Assembly: GCA_051715425.1 (NCBI GenBank)
Contig: JBPXJS010000011.1
Coordinates: 132,215 to 196,214 of the forward strand
Direction: 5' to 3'
Length of the DNA: 64,000 nucleotides
Source: Bacteroidota bacterium
Lineage (GTDB): Bacteria > Bacteroidota > Bacteroidia > UKL13-3
Both the position numbers and the translations under genes were made by a program. A model generated the notes under the pieces. It ran no database searches. It saw only the letters and a list, made by a program, of their open reading frames with translations, and had not been told where the DNA came from. Below are positions 5,702-30,895 of the stretch, piece after piece. How positions within the stretch are numbered: position 1 is the first letter of the stretch; each line of letters opens with the position of its first letter.

Positions 5702-7126
5702 ATGAATTTTTTCAAACCGGTTTTATATTTTCTGTTTATTGTAATAGCGTTTACTGCCTGCCGCACCACCAAGGTTAATCCTGCGTATACACCCGTATCT
5801 GACGATTCTGCTTATGTAAAACCTGTTTCCATTATTGCCGTGCCTGTTCAACTGGATTATAAAACACTGGAAAGAACCATCCACTACCAGTTGTCGCCCG
5901 TATTATACGAAGACCTGAGTTACGAGAATAACAATACCGATGATTTAATGATTCGTATTACCAGAAAAGATACCATTCGGGTTGACGGGCAAGGCAACAG
6001 GCTGAGGTTACAGGCGCCCCTTCACCTCTGGATAAAATACCGTTTCAGAAAAAAAATACTGGGCATCAACCTGGAAGAGCAAATTGAAAAAGACCTCGAT
6101 GTGTTTACCATCATTCAGTCTCAGCTTTCGGTAAACAACAAATGGCAACTTACCGGAAATACACAAACCAGTATTGATACCCGCTTATTACCCGCTATTA
6201 ATATGCCTGGTTTTGTTATTGATTTAAACAACCTGCTTACACCGGTAATACGTGCGCAGGAGAAAAAAGTATCTAAACTGATTGATGAAGGATTACCCAA
6301 ATGGGTTGACCTGAGAACGCTGGTGAATAAACAATGGATGGCTTTGCAAAATCCGCTTTCTCTTGATACGGCTTATAAGGCATGGCTCATTGTGCAACCG
6401 GATATGATCACCATGTCGGATATAACGTTTGCTCCTGACCATGCGAAGTTTGGTTTCAACTTTTTACTTTCAGGAGAAATAAGAACAAGCGAGGGTATTC
6501 CATATGTAAGTAAAAAAATGCTGCCTGATTTGCAAAGAACCCAGGGAATCAATAACGGGTTCAATATTATTATGCCGGTAAGGTTATTATACAAACAGCT
6601 TACCCAAAACTTAAACGCCCAGCTGGCCAATAAGCTTTATACTTTTGAAAACAACAAACACCAGATATTTATTGAGCAGGTACTCGTTTTTCCTGATAAG
6701 GGCAAGTTGGGTGTAGCAGTTGATTTTCATGGGTTATCTGAAACGGGTGTGATGAAGAAAAAACTAAAAGGCAAACTCATTTTAACCTGCGAACCCAAAT
6801 ACGATGCTTCTACCAAAACCCTGCGGTTTCAGCATTTGGAATACAGCGTGGCCACCAGGGATATTTTGCTTAAAACAGCTTCGTGGTTATTACAGGGAAA
6901 AGAGTTTAAACAAAACCTGGAACAAAAATTAGTGCTGCCTTTGGGCAATCAGCTAAGCCAGTTGCGCGAGCTGGCGGGTAAAGCCATCAATACCCAACCG
7001 GCAAAAGATATTTATCTGCAGGGCGATGTAACGGCTGTGGATATAGACGATATCCGTTTGCTAAACGAGTCATGCATTGTGTATCTAAGGGCAAAGGGAA
7101 AAGTGCATTTGTTTTTTAGGCAATAA
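5702..7126 (+). CDS. hypothetical lipoprotein (DUF4403-like)
   Basis: 474 aa. Signal peptide with a lipobox-like FTAC. No catalytic motif recognised. Confidence 0.6.
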   Translation: MNFFKPVLYFLFIVIAFTACRTTKVNPAYTPVSDDSAYVKPVSIIAVPVQLDYKTLERTIHYQLSPVLYEDLSYENNNTDDLMIRITRKDTIRVDGQGNRLRLQAPLHLWIKYRFRKKILGINLEEQIEKDLDVFTIIQSQLSVNNKWQLTGNTQTSIDTRLLPAINMPGFVIDLNNLLTPVIRAQEKKVSKLIDEGLPKWVDLRTLVNKQWMALQNPLSLDTAYKAWLIVQPDMITMSDITFAPDHAKFGFNFLLSGEIRTSEGIPYVSKKMLPDLQRTQGINNGFNIIMPVRLLYKQLTQNLNAQLANKLYTFENNKHQIFIEQVLVFPDKGKLGVAVDFHGLSETGVMKKKLKGKLILTCEPKYDASTKTLRFQHLEYSVATRDILLKTASWLLQGKEFKQNLEQKLVLPLGNQLSQLRELAGKAINTQPAKDIYLQGDVTAVDIDDIRLLNESCIVYLRAKGKVHLFFRQ

Positions 7127-13103: not shown

Positions 13104-13778
13104 TTACTGAAACCTAAAAACAATAGGTACTATAAGGCAGAAACTTTGGGGTATTCCATTGAGCTTAGGCGGACTTGAAAACTTCATTTTTCTAAGGACC
13201 CTTGCTGCTTCTTTATTCAGGGAAACATGATCTCCTTTTATAATGGCTATTTTTTCCATGGTTCCATTAACACTTAAGGTACATGATAAGATAACTCGCC
13301 CCTCAATACCATTTTCTCTGGCATAAACCGGATAATTTAATTTTCCGGACAAATATTCGCTAAATTTTTTTTCACCACCTGCCAAAACGGGTGCTGTATA
13401 TCCTAAAGAATCATTATCTTCAAATGTATTCACATATCCTGCATTAAATCGGTTAGCATTACAAGCGGTGTCCTTATAGTTCAACTCAAAATCAAAGTTC
13501 AGTTTTTCCAGCCCAAAGTTTGTTTCAATGTACCAGATGCCGAAAGGTTCACCATAATTATCCTCACATCTAATCGTGATATCTTTTTTAATATCCCGAA
13601 TTTCATTAAGGGTTCTTCCATCAAGCAGCTTGGTGGTGGTAAGGGAATAACTGGCTTTTTCTGCAGTTGTTTCTTTTCTCAGGTATTGGTCCTTATAATA
13701 AGTAGTTGTTTGGGCATAAACATGGAAACTAAATATAAACAGTAGAGCAATAAGGAATAGTTTGTTCATGTTTGGCAT
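13104..13778 (-). CDS. secreted protein with C-terminal TonB-C-like domain
   Basis: 224 aa. Signal peptide (…HVYAQ). C-terminal ENGIEGRVILSCTLSVNGTM...IIKG motif typical of the TonB C-terminal domain. Confidence 0.55.
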   Translation of the reverse strand: MPNMNKLFLIALLFIFSFHVYAQTTTYYKDQYLRKETTAEKASYSLTTTKLLDGRTLNEIRDIKKDITIRCEDNYGEPFGIWYIETNFGLEKLNFDFELNYKDTACNANRFNAGYVNTFEDNDSLGYTAPVLAGGEKKFSEYLSGKLNYPVYARENGIEGRVILSCTLSVNGTMEKIAIIKGDHVSLNKEAARVLRKMKFSSPPKLNGIPQSFCLIVPIVFRFQ

Positions 13779-18756: not shown

Positions 18757-18870
18757 GGTGGCGATTTCGAAGCACTTCACTGTCAACCAAGCACAAGCTT
18801 TGATAGATGCACAAAGCTTCATTTAACCACTGAACCGCCACTTTTGGGTAGGTGCTGTTATAAGCCGTTT
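18757..18870. repeat. repeat B copy (3'-of-gene module)
   Basis: ggtggcgatttcgaagcac...gcacaaagcttcatttaaccactgaaccgcc. Homologous copies at 22170–22272, 24030–24150, 28001–28125 and 29410–29530. Confidence 0.8.
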
Positions 18871-19830
18871 TTATTTGTTGAATTGTGGGTCGAAATTGTC
18901 ATAAAAATGAGAGCAAATGCCAGATTTGTTTATGATTTTAAGAACTTTCATCATTCTAACATGATGGTCATGGTCGTGGTCATGTTGTCCAAGAGTCATT
19001 TCTTTTTCTGCGTCAACCGACAGAATTGAATGCAACGAATGTGGTGCTGGATGTCCTGGCATATCTCCAAGCCATTTTCCAATCCATTGAATTTCACCAA
19101 CAACATTATTTGCTACTTTCCAATCTTCAATTCTGTCGTCTACCCATCCGTGTAATTTCCAAAAAGTCGGATGAACATGGCTTGAATATGTGTCACCAAG
19201 CCAGTCATAATTTGGGTCGTCCCATTTAGGGTCAATGTTTGTTGAAAATTCGTCTGGGTCAGGTCTGATTTCGTCTATCTGTGAACAAAATCTCATATGC
19301 AACCAGTTGTGAATTGTAAATTCTAGTCTAGCACCCAATTCGCCTAATGACACCGTCTTCAAATAGCCTTTGTCGGTAAATTGAGTTTCTAACGGTTTAA
19401 TCCTTTGATTATAAAAGTCATCTGATTTTACATTTCTCAAATAATCATTTAAACCTTGGTCACCTGTTTCCCAAGTTGGAGGAACAGGATATTCACTATC
19501 ATTAGGAGTAGGAATTGATTTCCATCCTTCAACTTTTGGATAGGTTGCATCTCCAATTTCTCGAAGTCTTTGATTAACACTTGCAATCATAACTCTGTGC
19601 ATATATAAAAAATCTTCCCCCGAGTTGTTAGATACATCTAGTTGTCTCGGATTTGAGTTTCTTACATAAGCAGGTCTTGGCGGCTCCCAACCTAGCTGTC
19701 TAATTTGATTTCTTTCACTGTCGGAATATAGCCACCAGCTATTTCTTACTTGATGCCATAGGTAGTGATGAAGTCTGTGGTCGTGTGACGCCATCATCGT
19801 AATAATATGTCTTGGTAATTTGTTGCTCAT
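18871..19830 (-). CDS. hypothetical His/Trp-rich protein
   Basis: 319 aa with HDHRLHHYLWH and HDHDHDHH motifs. 25 bp downstream of the Fic gene. Confidence 0.55.
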   Translation of the reverse strand: MSNKLPRHIITMMASHDHRLHHYLWHQVRNSWWLYSDSERNQIRQLGWEPPRPAYVRNSNPRQLDVSNNSGEDFLYMHRVMIASVNQRLREIGDATYPKVEGWKSIPTPNDSEYPVPPTWETGDQGLNDYLRNVKSDDFYNQRIKPLETQFTDKGYLKTVSLGELGARLEFTIHNWLHMRFCSQIDEIRPDPDEFSTNIDPKWDDPNYDWLGDTYSSHVHPTFWKLHGWVDDRIEDWKVANNVVGEIQWIGKWLGDMPGHPAPHSLHSILSVDAEKEMTLGQHDHDHDHHVRMMKVLKIINKSGICSHFYDNFDPQFNK

Positions 19831-19854: not shown

Positions 19855-20955
19855 TTATTCCCTGATAAGTGCTGTGAAAATGTCATTAAGGCTTTTTCCA
19901 TTTCCTTGTCGTGCAGTTTGTAATGCTTTGTAGTATTCTATTCGTTCAATTTTTTCAAATGTAACGTCTTTGTCAAGCAAGTCTTTAAATTGAATTGAAG
20001 CTAAAACTCTTGCTATTCTTCCGTTGCCGTCTAAGAATGGATGTATTGTTAAAAACTTCTCGTGAAATGTTGCAATTGCAGTTATTTTATTGTCATCCGA
20101 ACCATAAGCTACCTTCATAAATTCATTTCTCCACCATTCTAATAATTCAAAAGTTAAAGAAGGAACGTCTGCTGGTGATACTGGAACAAAGTCTGCACTT
20201 TCCTTTTCTTGACCAGGACTACCAATCCAAACATCTAATTTTCTAAAGCCTAAGAGACTATGATATTCTTGCCCTTGGGTTTCCATTAAAATTGTCTTGT
20301 GAAGAACAAGGAGGTCTTCAATTGATAGTCTAGATGAAAATTTCACACCCGCAATAGGTAACGAGGATAATTTAGAATAACCAAAGTCACGCGAATAAAT
20401 TTGTCCTGCGAGCTTATTTGTTACCTTGTTTAATTCTGCAAGTGCATTTTTAATTTCATCGAAGTTTTGCTTTAAGTCGAGATGAGAACTTAAAAAAGAT
20501 ATTTGTTCTGCTTTATTTAGTTCAATACCTAAATATTCTAGTCTTACACCATAGCCTTTGGGGCTGTCAAGAATACCACAAACACTTTCTCCGTGTAGGA
20601 TTACTGTTTTGAATGTTCTATTTTGACAAAGAGTGATTCTTTCACCGGGCGTAATTTTTTGATTTGTAACAAAAACGAAACCTTGAGCATTATTTTTAGT
20701 CACGCCCAAAATGTCTCTTTCAAATTTTTCTTGAATGTCTTTAAACTCCTTTTGTCCATTTGGGAAATAACAGCCAACAACAAATTTTTCTCCTTCTTTA
20801 TAACAGATAATATCTTTTGTTCCATCAGGTCCACCCACAGGACTTTGAGGGTCAATTTCTTGGTAACCTTCAATTCCAATTACTTTAGCAGCCATTCTTT
20901 CCGCAAATGCCTGTCCTTTGTCCCAGTTGATTAATATTTGATATGTATTTGTCAT
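19855..20955 (-). CDS. Fic/DOC family protein
   Basis: Canonical Fic motif HPFLDGNGRIAR in the C-terminal half. ~200-aa N-terminal extension. Confidence 0.85.
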   Translation of the reverse strand: MTNTYQILINWDKGQAFAERMAAKVIGIEGYQEIDPQSPVGGPDGTKDIICYKEGEKFVVGCYFPNGQKEFKDIQEKFERDILGVTKNNAQGFVFVTNQKITPGERITLCQNRTFKTVILHGESVCGILDSPKGYGVRLEYLGIELNKAEQISFLSSHLDLKQNFDEIKNALAELNKVTNKLAGQIYSRDFGYSKLSSLPIAGVKFSSRLSIEDLLVLHKTILMETQGQEYHSLLGFRKLDVWIGSPGQEKESADFVPVSPADVPSLTFELLEWWRNEFMKVAYGSDDNKITAIATFHEKFLTIHPFLDGNGRIARVLASIQFKDLLDKDVTFEKIERIEYYKALQTARQGNGKSLNDIFTALIRE

Positions 20956-21684: not shown

Positions 21685-21799
21685 ATATTGTTTGTTTAAT
21701 TAGTTTTTGTTTGCAGCTTGAAGAATTTGCCTTCATTTCAAATGAGATTATAAGTTTTTAATTATTATGGATAAAAAGTTATTGCCTCCTCAATTATCT

Positions 21800-22100
21800 A
21801 CCTACCACAAACCTCCCCAACCTTCCCATCAAAATCAAGAGTGAAAACACTCTTTTTTCATAGGGAAAACATTCTTTTTTTTGGAAGTGCCTAACGGGTG
21901 TTTGGCGGCTGTAAGTATTGTATTTATTAGCAAATAGGGCAAAATGGAGGCAAATGGCCAATTTTTTTTCCGAAACCCCTGTTTTAGTTTGTGAAAGGGG
22001 AGAAAGGGTTTGCTAAGGTGAAAATTGGAAGAAAATTTGGTGGTGCTTTTAAGGAGATTTGGGAGCATAAAATGATCTGTTTATATGTCGGTATTTGAGG
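21800..22100. repeat. repeat A copy 1 (~300-bp 5'-of-gene module)
   Basis: acaaacctccccaacc(c/t)tcccatcaaaatcaagagtgaaaacactcttttttcataggg...ggcaaaatgg...gtgaaaggggaga... Contains hairpin aagagtg-aaaa-cactctt followed by a T-run. Other copies at 27680–27990 and 30735–30895 (truncated), plus a degenerate copy at 21120–21200. Confidence 0.85.
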
Positions 22101-22169
22101 TCAAAGCTTACGCGGATGATATGTCTTTAGGTACGACTTTAAACTATTTGGATAGTTGCAATGAGAGAA

Positions 22170-22272
22170 ACTTACAAGCACTGTACTTTATACGAAGCAC
22201 AAATGTTCATTTAATCACTGAACCGCCAATTTCTTGTAAGTTCAGTTAGCTGCTGTGGTTCTATCTCGTGTC
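22170..22272. repeat. repeat B copy
   Basis: ...tacgaagcacaaatgttcatttaatcactgaaccgcc...agctgctgtggttc. Directly 3' of the stop of gene 22276–23994. Confidence 0.8.
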
Positions 22273-22275
22273 ATT

Positions 22276-23994
22276 TTATGCGTCAATTTCTTCATCTGTT
22301 TCTATTGTTACTGGGTCAATTTGCAGTTGATGTTGTTCCCATTCAAGTTGTTTTTGCTTGTCGTTTGAGATAGCTTGTTCAATAGCTAAACTTTCTCTGT
22401 AATGTCGTGCCTCTGCCACCATTGTCCACTTTGCGTTAATGTTCATACTCTCTACTTCCGCTTTAATGTCTGCAAGTGTTACTTTGAAAAATTCTTTTCG
22501 CGGGTTTACTTTATTCATTTGTAGTCGCAGGAATTTCTTGTGTAATTCTCTTTCAAGTCCTGGAGCATTGTCGCTAAATATCATTGAATGGACATCAAAC
22601 TCAAATGGAACGCTCGCATCTCCTAATTCTTTCACTCTGTCAAGAGGTTCAAGTCGTCTTGTCATTCCGATTTTATAAACGTTTTCCCCGAAAGAACCAA
22701 TGTTAGAAATAATATAAACGTTTCCAGATTTTGTCTGTTGTGCCATTGATATTGCTCGTTGATTTTTGTCTTCCGCAATTTTTAATTTTCCTTCAAGTTC
22801 TCTTAATTTTTCTTCGTATTTAGATTTTTGGTCTTCGCTTGCTTGTGCTACTTCTTTTTGAACTTTTTCAATCAGTTTCTTTAAAGTTTCTTCTTCTTTT
22901 TGAGCTTCTTTTATTGCTCTTTCAAAATCTCTTCGGGCTTTTTCTTCTTCTCTGATTTGTTCTTTTATTCTTCTTTGTTCTTCTTGTTCTTCCCATTTTA
23001 ATTCTTGGGCAATAACAGCCCATTTCAATTCGTCTATTCTTGCGTTTAAATATTCTTGTGTTATGATTGCATTACGAAACGCTTTACCATTATTGTTTAC
23101 AACTTGGTAAGCATCTTTAATTTTTTGTTCTAATGTTCCGTAATTGTCTTTTTTTACTTTTGAAAGTATGGAGTCAACTTTACCATTAAATGCGTCAAGG
23201 ATAAAATTGATTGCAGTTTCTTTTCGATTTGCTTCTACATAATCACATTTGGCAGATGTCCCGTTTTTAATCATTAAACGAGTTTTTTCTCTTGAAAATT
23301 TTAATTTTTCTCCTGCTTCCGTATGTCTAAATTCTTCTGCTAAATCGTCAAGTAGACTGTAAGTTGGGATTAAGTATCTGTCGCCATAACCCTCAATAAT
23401 ATTCTTCATTGCCTTTGCAGTTTTTTCTAGTTCAGTTGCATTTTGCATTGCTTTGTATGCATCACCTGCAATTTCTTGTGCTTTCTTGTCTGCTCGTTCA
23501 ATAATTAGTTTAGCTTCTTTCGTAGCATTGTCTAATTGTGCAACTGCATTTTGTTTAAATGCAGTTGCATCAATATTTGCTTGTGTCTTAATTGTATTTG
23601 CTGAAATAGAAGCTTGGTCAAGTTCTTTCTGTGCTTGCAATTTTAGTTCATTGGCTTCTGAAGTTGCAGTGTCGAGTTGTTGTTTAGCGTTATCAATAAT
23701 TGAGTTTGCATTTTTTTCTGCATCTGAAAGAATTTCCTTTGCTTTCAGTTCTGTGTCAACAATACCTTGATATTTATTTAATGCTGCATTTTTTTGTTCA
23801 AGGTCTGAAACTTGCCCAATTAGAACAATACTATTTTGTTTTAGGTCTGTAAGTTGGTCGGATAAATTTTTTCTTTCCTTTTCATTAAAAGCCAAACTGT
23901 TTGTCAAGTCGTTAATAATAGTTTGTAGTTTCTTGCGGTTTGTAAGCCAAAGAATAGCTAAAATGATTATTACTATAATTAAAATTGCAGTCAT
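22276..23994 (-). CDS. DUF4041 domain protein with C-terminal T5orf172 (GIY-YIG-like) domain
   Basis: 572 aa. N-terminal TM helix, long coiled-coil, then GNVYIISNIGSFGENVYKIGMTRRLEPLDRVKELGDASVPFEFDVH, characteristic of T5orf172/MUG113. Confidence 0.75.
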   Translation of the reverse strand: MTAILIIVIIILAILWLTNRKKLQTIINDLTNSLAFNEKERKNLSDQLTDLKQNSIVLIGQVSDLEQKNAALNKYQGIVDTELKAKEILSDAEKNANSIIDNAKQQLDTATSEANELKLQAQKELDQASISANTIKTQANIDATAFKQNAVAQLDNATKEAKLIIERADKKAQEIAGDAYKAMQNATELEKTAKAMKNIIEGYGDRYLIPTYSLLDDLAEEFRHTEAGEKLKFSREKTRLMIKNGTSAKCDYVEANRKETAINFILDAFNGKVDSILSKVKKDNYGTLEQKIKDAYQVVNNNGKAFRNAIITQEYLNARIDELKWAVIAQELKWEEQEEQRRIKEQIREEEKARRDFERAIKEAQKEEETLKKLIEKVQKEVAQASEDQKSKYEEKLRELEGKLKIAEDKNQRAISMAQQTKSGNVYIISNIGSFGENVYKIGMTRRLEPLDRVKELGDASVPFEFDVHSMIFSDNAPGLERELHKKFLRLQMNKVNPRKEFFKVTLADIKAEVESMNINAKWTMVAEARHYRESLAIEQAISNDKQKQLEWEQHQLQIDPVTIETDEEIDA

Positions 23995-24163: not shown

Positions 24164-25180
24164 TTACACTGTTAGGTTTATTTTGTGCCGTTTCCCGTTT
24201 AGTAAAAAGTCAATTTGTATTTTGTTGTGAAGTATAATTTCAAGATGTCCAAAGTCAAACTCTTTATGATGATTTGGACAAAGTAAAATTATGTTCTCAG
24301 GTGTTTCTCGTCCTTTTAAGTATTTGGCTTTTATGTGTGCAGCTTCAATATACTTGCTTCCGTTTTTTTTCATTATTGTAGTAGAACAAATTTGGCATTT
24401 AAAGTCCCGGAGAATTTTTATTTGTGTTATTGTTTTGTTGTCGCGTTTATATCTTTTGTGATTGACAATAATTTCTTCAGGGTCGTTGTCCTTTAGATTC
24501 TTTAGGTCTTTTAGAATGTCTGCCTTTGATTTATTCTTTTTGAAGTATATTTCAAGTTCGATTTGTTCCTTTTCGTCATTTGAAACAAAGGTCAATTGAA
24601 ACTTTTTACCTGTATAGTATTCATAAATAGATAAAAGTTTCTTAAAATCTATTTCGTTTGTTCCAACTTTCGATAATTCAGTTAATTCGTCAAAAAGTAT
24701 ATGTTCAGCGAATTTATCATCTTTATAGGTGAAACCAATTTGCCCAACCATTCTTTCACTTGAATTGTCTTTGTAATTGTTCGCGTCAAGTGGTAAAGGA
24801 AATAAAATTGAAAAATCCCTTTCGGCCTTGATGTTTGCCCAATAAGCATTCTTTTGAAATGCAGTCGGAAGTTTTCTTGCTTCATTAAACGTTTCCGCTT
24901 TGCCATATACTCCAACAATTTGTCCTTTGTTTTCGTCAGTGTTCCTTGTGTAAAATATTATGAGTCCGCCCTTTTCGAATTTCACTGGAGCATTTTTCCA
25001 TTTAACGAAACCGTTTATAAACTTTTCGGTGTCAACTGCTTTTTTGTTGAAGTTGAAATTTAATGATTCACCACCAACATTGTCTTGAGCGTATTTATGC
25101 CCTGCTTTAGGATTTATATAGCTGTTGTTTCTCCAACCAAATGGATTCCAAGTAATGTTTGCGATTATTATTTTACTCAT
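24164..25180 (-). CDS. HNH endonuclease with N-terminal PUA/EVE-like domain (putative modification-dependent restriction enzyme)
   Basis: C-terminal HNH (CQIC...AHIKAK...LLCPNHHKEFDFGH). N-terminal beta-barrel-like signature GGLIIFYTRN...GQIVGVYGKAE resembling EVE/PUA. Confidence 0.6.
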   Translation of the reverse strand: MSKIIIANITWNPFGWRNNSYINPKAGHKYAQDNVGGESLNFNFNKKAVDTEKFINGFVKWKNAPVKFEKGGLIIFYTRNTDENKGQIVGVYGKAETFNEARKLPTAFQKNAYWANIKAERDFSILFPLPLDANNYKDNSSERMVGQIGFTYKDDKFAEHILFDELTELSKVGTNEIDFKKLLSIYEYYTGKKFQLTFVSNDEKEQIELEIYFKKNKSKADILKDLKNLKDNDPEEIIVNHKRYKRDNKTITQIKILRDFKCQICSTTIMKKNGSKYIEAAHIKAKYLKGRETPENIILLCPNHHKEFDFGHLEIILHNKIQIDFLLNGKRHKINLTV

Positions 25181-25184
25181 TTCG

Positions 25185-26378
25185 TTAATTTTGTGTTGCT
25201 ACAATAGTTAATGTTGTTCGCTGGAGTTTTGCCAAATCGTTCATTGTTTGAGTAAATACTGTACGTGCATGTTCATAATTGTAGTTACACAACAAAAGAA
25301 TAACGGGACCTTTTCCTTGCCATATCTCAGAGTACTGTGAAACCTGTCCTTTTGCTCGTTGAATTGCTCCCGCACTTGAATCTCTTTTCATCTCTATCAA
25401 AATGGTGTCATTCACTACAATATCTGCTCGTCCTCTGCCTGCCTTATCAGCAATAGGGTACTCTAATTCAATTGATGCACCTGGCAAATGCTTTTTCAAA
25501 TGGCGGTATAACCTGTCTTGATACTCGTACTCGTAGTATGCTCCTTTGGGATGCCAATTTTGTAAAGCAATCACAAAGTCATTAAAGAGGTTTGAATTGC
25601 TTTTTGCAATAACAGCACTTACTTGTTCCTCTTGTTTTGCATTAATGACTAATTCACTTTCCACTTGAGTTTGGATAGTTGCAGCTTGGTTAGTGTATTT
25701 TGAATCCGCTTTATTTTTATAATCAAAAAGTTGTCGCAGTTCTGATTTGATTCGTATAAATATCTGTTGATCTCTTTTGTAGAGATAAAATAAGATTGCT
25801 ACACCAAACAGAATAGCAACCCAGTAGTAGTGGTTTGTAAATCTTTCGAACTCACGGAAAGATGAAAGTCGTATGTTGAACAAATTTTCAATCGGCTTGC
25901 GAACAAAAACAGATAAATTTTGAAACGCTTTCCAACTGATACCACCAACAAATAAAACTCGTCCAATTTTGTAGATGTTCTCATTTTGTCCGTTTTTCTT
26001 GGTTACTTCAATTTCATCTTTCATTATTTCGTAGTAAGTTAATAATCTAGATTTTGCTCTTTCCCAAGTCCAGTTGCCTTTGTCGTCACGCCATGAACCT
26101 ATAAAAGCAAGAACAATTACTAAGGTGAAAAGGAGAAAGATTAATGTTGAATAGTAGGTCAGTCGATCAGAGTCAACACCGAGTAGCTCGTCAAGAAGCG
26201 GTGCAATTATTAAAACCCATACGCTACCCCAAATAGAAAATTTTATACGTTTGCCATAAAGTTTACGATCTATGTTATCAACTGTATCAAATAGTTTAGT
26301 AACGGCAGTCTGAGTCTGCACTAAGGTTAAGTTTAAATAATCTTTAGCCCCTTTTTGTTGTTCGGTCATATTGTCCAT
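25185..26378 (-). CDS. membrane-anchored protein with C-terminal PD-(D/E)xK (Mrr-like) nuclease domain
   Basis: 397 aa with 3–4 TM helices in the N-terminal half. C-terminal ...RADIVVNDTILIEMKRD... (D...E-x-K). Ends 5 bp before the EVE–HNH gene. Confidence 0.5.
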   Translation of the reverse strand: MDNMTEQQKGAKDYLNLTLVQTQTAVTKLFDTVDNIDRKLYGKRIKFSIWGSVWVLIIAPLLDELLGVDSDRLTYYSTLIFLLFTLVIVLAFIGSWRDDKGNWTWERAKSRLLTYYEIMKDEIEVTKKNGQNENIYKIGRVLFVGGISWKAFQNLSVFVRKPIENLFNIRLSSFREFERFTNHYYWVAILFGVAILFYLYKRDQQIFIRIKSELRQLFDYKNKADSKYTNQAATIQTQVESELVINAKQEEQVSAVIAKSNSNLFNDFVIALQNWHPKGAYYEYEYQDRLYRHLKKHLPGASIELEYPIADKAGRGRADIVVNDTILIEMKRDSSAGAIQRAKGQVSQYSEIWQGKGPVILLLCNYNYEHARTVFTQTMNDLAKLQRTTLTIVATQN

Positions 26379-26552
26379 TTTAAAATTGTTTATTTGAGCT
26401 TGTTGTATGATGTAAGCACAGCAGTCAATGCTTTCATTATAGCTTGAGGTCTTTCAACACTGAAGTTTTGTTTATAATGGTTTGCCTGAAAGGCGCTGAC
26501 CCAGCTGTAGCGAATTACTTCCTTAAGATGGTTTACATTGCTCAGTCATTTG

Positions 26553-27581
26553 TCAGCCAGTTATTTTTTTTAACTCGTCCACCAATAGTTTACTTTCCAT
26601 TTTAGATAGATAAGGTGTCTTTAAGGTTCTTGCCCAAAAGAATCCGTGCTCCAATAATTCTGTCACTTTGTAGAATGGCAGATAGTTTGTAATTCCATTT
26701 TCTTTGCTTGGGGGTTTTGTAAGCCATTTAACACTAACAAAACCTTCGTCATCGTCTAAGTCCTCATTGTATTCTTCTTTAGTATTAGTGAGCACTTCAC
26801 CTGCAGCGATAATTCCATGATGTTTATGAGAAAGGAAAACAATGTCCCCCTTTTTTAAATAGTAAGCAAAGTATGCTTGTCCTCCATAGGCTGAAGCTCT
26901 TTTTTTATTAAGCATATCCCATACACAGTCTTCGTTGTAAGTTCTATTTGTATCTAGGATTACGCCTTTTTGTTGGTTTGGATTAATGTGTGTATCGTGA
27001 GGTTTCGCGAAGAATTCAAAGTATAATTCATTACCAAGACTATAAATCCTATAAGGAATGAACTCAACTGAAAGTCCTTTAGTTTTCCAATATGTCAAAG
27101 ATTTTGCTAACGTCTCGTTAGCGGCACTTCCAACAACATAAAGATGTTGGTTTCTGTTAAACTCTGCTGGAGTTAATGCCCTGTCAAGTTGGAAGTCCTC
27201 TTTGTGAGCATCCAAAAGCTCCTTTTCAGGATTTTGTTTTTTGAAATAGTAATTTAATTTGTCATAACCCCATTGCCCAGCGGTTTGTGTATAACGTAAA
27301 ATTTGAACCATAGCATCGTCACCAACTACACCACGCTTTAATTCAAAAATTACAAGGTCTCCCTTTTCTGTAACTGCATAGATGTCCGCTTCGCCTTGAA
27401 AACTTCTTTCTTGGTGGATTGGCATTAATGCGTTGTCTTCGAAAAGTTTATTCAATAAATTATTAGCAAGTAGATTTTCTAGATCCTTTTCGATTTTGCT
27501 TAACTGGGAAAAGTCGTAAAACGGCAGTGGCTCCAGCCCGTTAGGGGTATTGTTGTTTTCAAGTGATAATTTGTATAGCAT
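26553..27581 (-). CDS. PD-(D/E)xK nuclease fused to C-terminal EVE domain (putative type IV restriction endonuclease)
   Basis: N-terminal GEADIYAV...GDLVIFELKRG (D...ExK). C-terminal KKGDIVFLSHKHHGIIAAGEV matches the EVE GDLVFFYHS...GIVGIAEV core. Confidence 0.6.
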   Translation of the reverse strand: MLYKLSLENNNTPNGLEPLPFYDFSQLSKIEKDLENLLANNLLNKLFEDNALMPIHQERSFQGEADIYAVTEKGDLVIFELKRGVVGDDAMVQILRYTQTAGQWGYDKLNYYFKKQNPEKELLDAHKEDFQLDRALTPAEFNRNQHLYVVGSAANETLAKSLTYWKTKGLSVEFIPYRIYSLGNELYFEFFAKPHDTHINPNQQKGVILDTNRTYNEDCVWDMLNKKRASAYGGQAYFAYYLKKGDIVFLSHKHHGIIAAGEVLTNTKEEYNEDLDDDEGFVSVKWLTKPPSKENGITNYLPFYKVTELLEHGFFWARTLKTPYLSKMESKLLVDELKKITG

Positions 27582-27679
27582 AGTGTTTTTGTCTTTAAGT
27601 TGCTAAAAACTAGTTATATATTCTCCACATATACACCTTTCCTTTATCCGCCTGCATAGATTTACATCAGGATCCAGTT

Positions 27680-27990
27680 ACCTCCACAAACCTCCCCAAC
27701 CCTCCCATCAAAATCAAGAGTGAAAACACTCTTTTTTCATAGGGAAAACATTCTCTTTTTTGGAGTGCCTAACGGGCGTTTGGCGGCTGTAAGCCATGTA
27801 TTTATTAGCAAATAGGGCAAAATGGTGGTAAATGGCCAATTTTTTTTCTGAAACCCCGGTTTTAGTTTGTGAAAGGGGAGAATGGGTTTGTTAAGGTGAA
27901 AATTAGAGGAAAATATGGTGGTGCTTTTAAGGGATCAGGGAGCATAAAAGATCTGTTTATATGCCGGTATTAGTTGTCAGAGCTCAACGT
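27680..27990. repeat. repeat A copy 2
   Basis: About 88–90% identical to 21800–22100 by inspection. Immediately upstream (5') of gene 26553–27581. Confidence 0.85.
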
Positions 27991-28000
27991 TTCTGGGGTT

Positions 28001-28125
28001 TAATAAGTTGGCAATTTCGGAGACAAAAACTGTCTGCCAGTAATAGACTTGATACTAAGCACAAAGCTTCATTTAAGTACTGAGCCCGCTTTTTTGCCTA
28101 ACCCGTGTTAGCTGCTTGTGCTTCT
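28001..28125. repeat. repeat B copy
   Basis: ggcaatttcggagacaaaaactgtctgccag...ctaagcacaaagcttcatttaagtactgagcccgc...agctgcttgtgcttctgtc. Confidence 0.8.
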
Positions 28126-29409: not shown

Positions 29410-29530
29410 GTGATTCCGGAGCACAAAACTGTCTACCAGCACCAAGCTTGTTACGAAGTACAATACTTCATTTAACCACTGACCCGTGAATTTCTTGTAG
29501 GTGCTTTTAGCTGTAGTGCTTCTTCTCATT
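29410..29530. repeat. repeat B copy
   Basis: ggtgattccggagcacaaaactgtctaccag...ttacGAAGTAcaaTACTTCatttaaccactgacccgtg...agctgtagtgcttcttctc. Confidence 0.8.
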
Positions 29531-29929: not shown

Positions 29930-30544
29930 TTATCTTATTTTTCGTTTGTGATTAGTTCCTGTCAACTTGCTTAATTTTGATATGGATGTTTCCAAATGCT
30001 TTTTTAGGATTCTTTTTAGTTCTTTTATTTCTTCAATGTCATTCACATTATTAAGTGATATTATTTCATCAAAATTTATTCCGTGTCTATATGTCCTCGC
30101 TGAAATTGGACCTTGTATTAAAAAGAGGAATTGACAATATGGAAAAATGGTTTTTATCATTTCTGCTTTTTGAGAATAGGTCAGAATTTCATGTGTGTTA
30201 GGCTGTCCTTTTTTAACTTCAAGTATTACAAATGGAAGTCCAACATGGTGTGAATTTTGTCCACTATCTTTTTCGAGTATTACATCAATAATTGTGTGTT
30301 CTTCTTTAGAAATTCGGCTGTCTTTTTGCTTTACTGTTTTGTCAAATAGAACTTTATAAATAGTAATATCTTGTTTGAAACACCATAATTCAAGTTTTGT
30401 GTTATTGTCTGTCGGGATATAGATGTGTTTGTAGGGAACCGGAACCTCCGTGCCAATTTGATACGGAAATTTTACAACGTCTTTAAGTTGCTCAATTAGT
30501 CTATCTCTAAGTTCTGTTTCTGTCAAATGTTGTGTTGTCGTCAT
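29930..30544 (-). CDS. hypothetical protein with PD-(D/E)xK-like motif
   Basis: 204 aa. ...HHVGLPFVILEVKKGQ... resembles a restriction-endonuclease-fold E-x-K motif. Confidence 0.45.
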   Translation of the reverse strand: MTTTQHLTETELRDRLIEQLKDVVKFPYQIGTEVPVPYKHIYIPTDNNTKLELWCFKQDITIYKVLFDKTVKQKDSRISKEEHTIIDVILEKDSGQNSHHVGLPFVILEVKKGQPNTHEILTYSQKAEMIKTIFPYCQFLFLIQGPISARTYRHGINFDEIISLNNVNDIEEIKELKRILKKHLETSISKLSKLTGTNHKRKIR

Positions 30545-30734: not shown

Positions 30735-30895
30735 TTGCAAACACAATACAAACCTCCCCAACCCTCCCATCAAAATCAAGAGTGAAAACACTCTTTTTTC
30801 ATAGGGAAAACATTCTTTTTTTTTACAGAGCCTAACAAGCGTTTGATGGCTGTAAGCATTGATTTTATTAGAAAGCAGGGCAAAATGGGAGCAAA
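30735..30895. repeat. repeat A copy 3 (truncated)
   Basis: The first ~160 bp match the other copies (caaacctccccaaccctcccatcaaaatcaagagtgaaaacactc...) and then diverge. Confidence 0.8.

Follow-up and report, generated by a model that had tools for sequence, protein, structure and literature searches.

A NucS-type nuclease joined to an EVE-like domain: a predicted modification-dependent restriction endonuclease in a bacterial defence island

The gene and its neighbourhood

Investigating a stretch of 64,000 nucleotides from a Bacteroidota-type genome (the whole of this stretch is called the window below), we followed up an open reading frame on the minus strand (26553..27581), which runs from an ATG to a stop codon, the latter included in the coordinates, and encodes a protein of 342 amino acids. 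Among about 5.8 billion proteins searched, 738 homologues were found at E<=1e-3, the majority of them full length (335-345 aa), and the alignment of 33 diverse homologues contains 59 invariant columns at a mean column identity of 60%; given this number of relatives and this conservation, the reading frame is a real gene. The identical protein is already recorded at NCBI, and members of the family carry the public names 'hypothetical protein', 'DUF91 domain-containing protein' or 'endonuclease NucS domain-containing protein'. In PADLOC the protein is matched by two models of PDC-S11, a single-gene candidate system: PDLC04916 (E 3.8e-20) covers residues 30-268 and leaves the last 75 residues uncovered, and PDLC04915 follows with an E-value of 5.7e-11. 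Models of PDC-S02 also match both domains of the protein, but the positions of these matches point to a reversed order of the domains. The AlphaFold model of the protein has a mean pLDDT of 82.

The GC content around the gene is 0.32-0.38, as against about 0.40-0.44 in the flanks. Also encoded on the minus strand are a SoFic-like gene (19855-20955), PD-Lambda-1 (22276-23994; PADLOC E 7e-114), a gene with a TagI/McrA-like HNH domain (24164-25180) and a membrane protein with a weak PD-(D/E)xK-like C-terminus (25185-26378); the three genes downstream of 26553-27581 lie on the same strand as the gene itself. A secreted nuclease in the neighbourhood bears a T9SS sorting tail.

The HNH gene deserves a closer look, as the first-pass annotation had counted it as a second, independent EVE-nuclease architecture within 3.5 kb, and this claim is not supported. 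The model of its product (pLDDT 88) has an HNH domain whose fold matches those of the type IV enzymes TagI, ScoMcrA and EcoKMcrA (E 4e-4 to 1e-3), and an NCBIfam model for restriction of phosphorothioate DNA also matches the HNH part, so that the protein may well be another modification-dependent enzyme. The N-terminal, beta-rich domain gives no EVE signal, however, and does not support an EVE-HNH fusion: Pfam EVE matches none of the 32 relatives scanned, the best PUA-like Foldseek match is a YTH structure at E=2.6, and hhalign found no match between this domain and the profile of the putative sensor of 26553-27581 described below.

Upstream of the gene lies an island-specific repeat ('repeat A', 27680..27984, with further copies of 92% identity at 21799-22108 and of 89% at 30748-30888), which stops about 100 nt short of the ATG, much as the first-pass annotation had it, and which has no match in Rfam. 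At the loci of homologues of 70-93% identity, the DNA match to the window is confined to the reading frame (26548-27598) and the repeat is absent; what moves is therefore the gene itself, 'repeat A' being local to this island. Inside the repeat, about 135 nt upstream of the ATG, a consensus scan picked up a terminator-like hairpin with T runs on both strands (27716..27733), a pattern match only, which suggests that the gene may start a new transcription unit. A scan for sigma-70 promoters gave 3 sites against 5.3 expected, its consensus omitting the promoters of a Bacteroidota-type host. The idea of an integron in the window was rejected, since the repeats on either side of the cassette-like genes have neither a conserved hairpin (consensus -4.65 kcal/mol, with unfavourable covariation) nor an Rfam match, and no integrase is present among the island reading frames scanned.

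Two domains of the 342-aa protein

The N-terminal part of the protein, residues ~1-195 (26997..27581, minus strand), is a PD-(D/E)xK nuclease domain of the NucS type, recognised by comparison with NCBIfam, Pfam and PDB sequences as well as by fold. Its catalytic core spans residues 62-98 (27288..27398, minus strand) and contains D66, E80-L-K82, Q93 and Y97, all five residues D66, E80, K82, Q93 and Y97 being invariant in 33/33 homologues. In the alignment with NucS of P. abyssi (PDB 2vld) these residues correspond to D160, E174, K176, Q187 and Y191, in that order; as in NucS, D66, E80 and K82 constitute the D...ExK triad, and Q93 and Y97 the QxxxY motif. By sequence, 2vld is found in the PDB at E 0.033, and in a Foldseek search with the AlphaFold model at E 1.8e-3 and 20% identity, followed by EndoMS (5gke, E 1.1e-2); the model also matches Shedu SduA and Hachiman HamA in their nuclease domains, which are NucS-like. 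The NCBIfam model for NucS (NF003270) aligns residues 26-100 with positions 125-197 of its 250 (E 1.8e-8), a partial match only, scoring 33.8 bits against a cut-off of 216, and for this reason the protein is no NucS orthologue. The N-terminal DNA-binding domain of NucS is absent here. The first-pass annotation had read a PD-(D/E)xK core from GEADIYAV...GDLVIFELKRG (residues 63-84); these matches by sequence and fold, together with the invariant residues, bear the call out and sharpen it to the NucS type.

The C-terminal part, residues 200-342 (26556..26984, minus strand), is a putative modified-base sensor with an EVE-like (PUA) fold, for which Foldseek, Pfam searches on relatives and a domain profile were brought together. 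The fold comparison of this domain was run with the whole-protein AlphaFold model only. Its best PDB matches are YTH domains (Mmi1, E 5.7e-4), after which come the EVE proteins 2gbs, 1zce, 1wmm/2hd9 and 2p5d from structural genomics, as well as the restriction enzyme VcaM4I (6yex, E 1.1e-3). For all of these (2gbs, 1zce, 1wmm/2hd9, 2p5d, the YTH domain of Mmi1 and VcaM4I) the Foldseek probability is 0.99-1.00; when normalised by the length of the target, the TM-score is 0.44-0.61 for EVE and YTH domains that stand alone and 0.25 for the two-domain VcaM4I. An EVE/PUA fold was thus recovered by structure prediction, as expected from the first-pass annotation.

In Pfam, the query itself does not match EVE (PF01878) even at E<=1, and NucS_C (PF01939) aligns with residues 31-99 at E 0.027 and 14.9 bits, under its gathering cut-off of 24; some homologues do have a precomputed PF01939 match. 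The EVE signal emerges from the family: an exhaustive HMMER search with the C-terminal domain only gave 157 representatives, from which 46 diverse copies were aligned and each scanned against Pfam, and 28 of these 46 match EVE at E<=1 (best 1.5e-5), the next family reaching 6/46. Longer relatives of the domain match EVE at E 3e-4 to 0.05, always around positions 30-85 of the profile. A profile built from the 46 copies and compared with PDB sequences retrieved the EVE proteins 2gbs (E 0.056), 2eve (0.11) and 2g2x (0.37). Fold, family-wide Pfam signal and profile-to-PDB comparison are three independent lines, and they place residues ~200-342, as far as model and sequence comparison can predict, as a divergent member of the EVE branch of the PUA-like superfamily; as a prediction, the EVE domain of the first-pass annotation stands.

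The conserved centre of the domain is the EVE core motif KGDIVFLSHKHHGIIAAGEV (residues 244-263; 26793..26852, minus strand), identified from the alignment with 2gbs and 2eve and from conservation counts. It had been recognised earlier as KKGDIVFLSHKHHGIIAAGEV (residues 243-263), together with WLTKP (residues 286-290). In the domain-profile alignment, GDxVFxxH...G-I-x-A-G-x-V stands opposite GDRAFYYHSNEGKEIVGIAEI of 2gbs, and the counterpart in 2eve is GDEFFFYHSS...GIAGIGKI; in our protein, GDIVFLSHKHHGIIAAGEV aligns with the core motif GDxxFFYHS ... G-I-x-G-I-x-x-V in 2gbs and 2eve. Within the motif, D246, F249, H252 and G256 are invariant among the close family. A further segment, FYWARTxKxPYL, is strongly conserved as well, but its modelling is of low confidence, with pLDDT <50 at residues 319-323.

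In EVE proteins a flipped base can be accommodated by an aromatic pocket, formed by W26 and Y82 in 2eve and by P24, W82 and Y130 in VcaM4I (PMC7897488). Position 281 (Phe in our protein, Tyr in most homologues) aligns with Y82 of 2eve, in a weak alignment (E 0.11), and holds Tyr or Phe in 32/33 close and 41/46 distant relatives. At the position of Y232 an aromatic residue is found in all 33 close relatives and in 44 of the 46 distant ones; its pairing with W26 of 2eve was made by eye. Y232 and F281 may therefore be regarded as candidate pocket residues, on the strength of a weak alignment for the one and a pairing by eye for the other.

Taken as a whole, the two-domain architecture of a NucS-type nuclease followed by an EVE-like domain can be assigned with high confidence. 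Published predictions already cover this class of architecture, and PADLOC lists the family among its candidates, of which our gene is a further member; the part which public annotation has not recorded is the EVE-like domain itself. Relatives of this domain stand alone or are joined to HEPN-like domains or an AAA_25 ATPase, the HEPN matches next to them being all sub-threshold (E 0.002-0.07), and one relative has a weak UDG-like match (E 7e-4). That the sensor constitutes a distinct, unnamed EVE-like clade and a portable module, with a ligand beyond 5mC or 5hmC in DNA, perhaps a hypermodified base that known type IV enzymes do not cover, a modified RNA or a nucleotide, is a tentative and rather doubtful proposition.

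Distribution and genomic contexts of the family

Relatives were located in 80 loci of GTDB species genomes, scattered very unevenly over the phyla; among the hosts are Ignavibacteriota, Bacteroidota, Acidobacteriota, several proteobacterial classes, Bacillota, Planctomycetota, Verrucomicrobiota, Deinococcota, Fusobacteriota, a CPR bacterium and an archaeon of the Nitrosopumilaceae. The flanks of the gene differ between loci even where the homologues are 80-93% identical. All-against-all clustering of the reading frames within 6 kb in these 80 loci revealed no conserved partner gene, the largest neighbour cluster occurring in 8/80. In Vibrio europaeus the homologue forms a one-gene cassette of a chromosomal integron array, with an attC-like repeat on either side and no other gene in between. 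With no neighbour family in more than 8 of the 80 loci and with this Vibrio cassette, the gene appears to be autonomous and to lack an obligatory cognate methyltransferase.

Some settings of the gene are found repeatedly and are instructive. In seven of the 80 loci the gene is inserted in the order hsdS-[gene]-hsdR with gaps of 4 bp, and hsdM, where present (7 of the 80 loci), is part of a complete type I system; a homologue of 80% identity lies directly 5' of hsdR-hsdM-hsdS. An Acidobacteriota homologue begins 4 nt past McrC within a cluster of McrBC and a methyltransferase. Other nearest neighbours are WYL regulators, TIR domains, recombinases and integrases. The family is found in a defence-island or mobile context, to which the window contributes PD-Lambda-1, the HNH gene, the SoFic-like gene and the low GC content, and other genomes contribute McrBC and type I restriction-modification (R-M). 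On plasmids, two full-length matches occur, both on Caballeronia megaplasmids, and a partial match to the nuclease domain on a Haladaptatus plasmid; no homologues were found in phage genomes, and among viral structures the matches were no more than generic ones, of the ASCH, DUF3850 and Mrr-like kinds.

Predicted function and related systems

From the domain architecture together with the genomic context, a type IV restriction role is what can best be inferred: the protein is probably a self-contained, single-chain restriction endonuclease that is NTP-independent and modification-dependent (type IV-like). The prediction is sound and testable, and to a specialist it will not be surprising. In the mechanism we infer, which extends to modified-base binding, the DNA target, the identity of the modification, the cleavage geometry and the oligomeric state, the EVE-like C-terminal domain would bind invading DNA and flip out a modified base, which would be held in an aromatic pocket (candidates Y232 and F281), and the NucS-type domain (D66, E80 and K82, with Q93 and Y97) would then cut the DNA nearby; host DNA, being without the modification, would be spared. 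The protein probably acts as a dimer or a higher oligomer. EVE-PD(D/E)XK and EVE-HNH fusions have been catalogued as putative type IV enzymes (PMC7641849), and enzymes combining a domain of the PUA superfamily with HNH have been shown to depend on 5mC or 5hmC (PMC6765204), the sensing domains in that 2019 screen being all N-terminal. VcaM4I flips 5mC or 5hmC into the pocket of its EVE domain, and its crystal structure contains the flipped base there (PMC7897488). Phages whose guanine is modified are restricted by a NucS-like nuclease that is fused to another kind of modified-base sensor (PMC12191111).

The same two domains could be put to other uses. As an effector of the abortive-infection or toxin type, the protein would use its EVE-like domain to detect a cue of infection such as modified RNA or a modified nucleotide in free form, and its nuclease would be released on host and phage nucleic acid alike, leading to cell death rather than to selective cutting of phage DNA. 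Such a role would be in line with the fusion of the sensor clade to HEPN-like and AAA_25 domains and its occurrence alone, with the binding of modified RNA by EVE and YTH domains in other systems, with the RNA targeting predicted for EVE-like domains in CoCoNuT systems (PMC11090510) and with the presence of EVE domains in toxin-antitoxin contexts (PMC7641849). The nuclease of VcaM4I is, moreover, auto-inhibited by its EVE domain and linker (PMC7897488), and the nuclease fold of our protein matches Shedu SduA and Hachiman HamA too. On the other hand, the HEPN matches are without exception sub-threshold (E 0.002-0.07), NucS-type PD-(D/E)xK domains are DNA nucleases, and an antitoxin-like or regulatory partner is not conserved across the 80 loci; the repeated association with McrBC and with type I R-M systems fits DNA restriction, and we consider an abortive-infection role unlikely. 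The public names of the relatives ('endonuclease NucS domain-containing protein' or DUF91), the agreement of the catalytic residues with NucS and the weak UDG-like match of one sensor-clade relative (E 7e-4) could instead suggest a housekeeping repair endonuclease related to NucS/EndoMS, in which the EVE-like domain replaces the N-terminal domain of NucS and reads damaged or mismatched bases. That domain is missing here, however, the NucS equivalog of NCBIfam matches only in part (33.8 bits vs a cut-off of 216), and a patchy distribution across phyla, flanks differing even at 80-93% identity, an integron cassette, a McrBC neighbour, type I R-M operons and a low-GC island are unexpected for a core repair gene, which makes this possibility highly improbable.

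The restriction genes beside some copies also raise the question whether the protein acts on its own, or whether it is a non-autonomous accessory subunit, for specificity or as effector, that depends on a system encoded next to it, for instance type I R-M or McrBC, or in the window the adjacent membrane/PD-(D/E)xK and HNH genes. Co-transcription is suggested by the short spacing, 4 bp to hsdS and hsdR in seven loci and likewise to McrC in one; type I R-M systems are known to have EVE proteins without a fused partner in their company (PMC7641849), and in the window the three genes downstream are on the same strand as the NucS-EVE gene. Yet 73 of the 80 loci are without such a partner and no neighbour family exceeds 8 loci, the Vibrio cassette holds the NucS-EVE gene alone, and the protein itself possesses a complete nuclease active site; a role as a dependent subunit is accordingly very unlikely.

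Among characterised enzymes, the type IV-like endonuclease proposed here resembles the EVE-HNH group of VcaM4I and TspA15I (PDB 6yex) in uniting an EVE-type sensor of PUA fold and a nuclease in one polypeptide with neither an NTPase nor a methyltransferase partner; the resemblance to VcaM4I extends to the Foldseek match (6yex, E 1.1e-3), and a conserved aromatic residue (position 281) may, in the weak alignment mentioned, take the place of a base-stacking pocket residue. It differs from this group in its nuclease, which is of the NucS-type PD-(D/E)xK fold instead of HNH, in the reversed order of domains with the nuclease N-terminal, and in an EVE-like domain that stays below the Pfam EVE threshold. 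In PvuRts1I and AbaSI, which depend on 5hmC or glucosyl-5hmC, a single chain begins with a Vsr-like nuclease of the PD-(D/E)xK superfamily and ends with an SRA-like sensor of the PUA superfamily. Domain order and logic are hence the same as in our protein, but the likeness is one of design only: NucS-like and EVE-like domains are found here, Vsr-like and SRA-like ones there, and neither enzyme matched the 342-aa protein in the PDB sequence or Foldseek searches. With NucS/EndoMS (PDB 2vld, 5gke) the protein shares the catalytic fold and the D...ExK...Q...Y residues, but it has no N-terminal DNA-binding domain, carries an extra EVE-like domain and resides in a mobile, defence-related context. 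The combination of a NucS-like nuclease and a recognition domain for modified bases in one protein is also realised in END(Mag), where the NucS-like PD-(D/E)xK domain is fused to an inactive EndoIII/Ogg1-like sensor and restricts phages with modified guanine (preprint, PMC12191111); that sensor is of the HhH glycosylase type, as opposed to a PUA barrel here.

The putative type IV EVE-PD(D/E)XK fusions of Bell, Wolf and Koonin (2020, PMC7641849), PDC-S11 and PDC-S02 belong to the same class in predicted architecture and are computational candidates; an experimental test of PDC-S11 or the NucS-EVE family was not found in the readable literature. A preprint of September 2026 (10.64898/2026.09.05.749240) has six mentions of 'PDC-S11', four of 'NucS' and one of 'EVE domain', and a term search suggests that 5hmC and T-even phages lie outside its subject.

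If the prediction is true, the family would represent a compact, NTP-independent type IV group of 342-aa proteins, each combining a nuclease of the NucS type with an EVE sensor of divergent sequence, and distributed over many bacterial phyla and some archaea. Enzymes of the same design, MspJI, AbaSI and PvuRts1I, serve as reagents for the mapping of DNA modifications. A new clade of sensors could bring a new specificity and, with it, possible value as a reagent; should the ligand lie beyond 5mC and 5hmC in DNA, this would be a new sensing specificity and not one more enzyme of the 5mC type. Recognition of the sensor domain would also improve the annotation of proteins which now are called hypothetical, DUF91 or 'NucS domain-containing'. 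Finally, to judge from the repeated insertion between hsdS and hsdR, cells seem routinely to pair a defence against modified DNA with one against unmodified DNA.

Defence-related genes next to the nuclease-sensor gene

The 342-aa NucS-like nuclease with a C-terminal EVE-like sensor (window 26553-27581, minus strand) is encoded amongst several defence-type genes, all likewise on the minus strand. Two of these establish the region as a defence island: one encodes a homologue of PD-Lambda-1 with DUF4041 and T5orf172 domains (window 22276-23994, PADLOC E 7e-114), the other a Fic protein of SoFic-like type (window 19855-20955, E 3e-21). Between them and the target gene lies a gene for an HNH protein (window 24164-25180), which in its HNH domain resembles TagI, ScoMcrA and EcoKMcrA, all of them type IV enzymes. 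The first-pass annotation had read the protein as an EVE-HNH fusion, which is not upheld: its N-terminal beta-rich domain is conserved, with N8, N12, P13, W16, H28 and further residues being invariant, but it gives neither an EVE signal nor a family assignment. The product of the neighbouring gene (window 25185-26378) is 397 aa long, is predicted to contain membrane segments and shows weak PD-(D/E)xK-like similarity at its C-terminus (HSDR_N_2, E 0.0036), while PADLOC returned no match for it; since the end of this gene is separated from the start of the HNH gene by 4 nt, the two may be co-transcribed. A 204-aa protein (window 29930-30544), also without a PADLOC match, shows a weak HSDR_N-type PD-(D/E)xK match (E 0.0021).

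Island repeats and a possible insertion hotspot

Two kinds of island-specific intergenic repeats were observed: a module of ~300 nt, with copies 89-92% identical at window 27680-27984, 21799-22108 and 30748-30888, and a unit of ~90 nt at window 28035-28124, 22173-22262, 29434-29523 and 18785-18874, which in every case is positioned immediately 3' of a minus-strand ORF. Four defence-type genes, together spanning 5.9 kb, lie between the two large copies, and a partial copy of the module precedes the gene of the 204-aa protein. The repeats had no match in Rfam, no conserved hairpin was found in them, and they were not found at the loci of target homologues. A TonB_C gene (window 13104-13778) stands at the edge of the low-GC island; at another locus, L086, a TonB_C gene lies two genes away from a 93%-identical target homologue (L086:2146-3171). 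The two places may be one and the same insertion hotspot with differing cargo, here ParB_N and an unknown gene.

The sensor clade, domain order and family coverage

The clade of the EVE-like sensor also occurs as stand-alone proteins of 120-200 aa, as well as fused to HEPN-like domains (sub-threshold), an AAA_25 ATPase or a UDG-like domain (sub-threshold, E 7e-4); proteins carrying it, alone or fused, are P0129-P0139, P0143, P0150, P0171 and P0204, of which P0143 combines it with a NucS-like domain and an additional C-terminal extension. PDLC04824 and PDLC04815 are models of PDC-S02, another PADLOC candidate system; one of them matches the nuclease domain of the target over model positions 181-289, the other its EVE core over model positions 56-120. 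These match positions imply that proteins with the sensor ahead of the nuclease form a separate PADLOC candidate system. Two close homologues of the target, P0004 and P0028, carry a precomputed Pfam match to PF28530.1; as this entry is absent from the Pfam copy used, a family covering the target protein may already be defined in a newer release.

Genomic settings of the homologues

In seven of the 80 GTDB species genomes with a relative of the target, the homologue interrupts a type I R-M operon, sitting between hsdS and hsdR with 4-bp gaps (L045, L047, L067, L070, L071, L072 and L080; gene at ~6001-7005 in most). In the stretch L087:132-7497, a close homologue immediately precedes hsdR-hsdM-hsdS on the 5' side, and an AAA_21 gene comes after hsdS. 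The homologue in Vibrio europaeus (L003:9860-11150, GCA_028447185.1) is the only gene of a cassette bounded by attC-like repeats (TAACAA...GCGTTA), as part of an array of small cassettes all on the same strand, where a RelA_SpoT-domain gene is found two cassettes further on.
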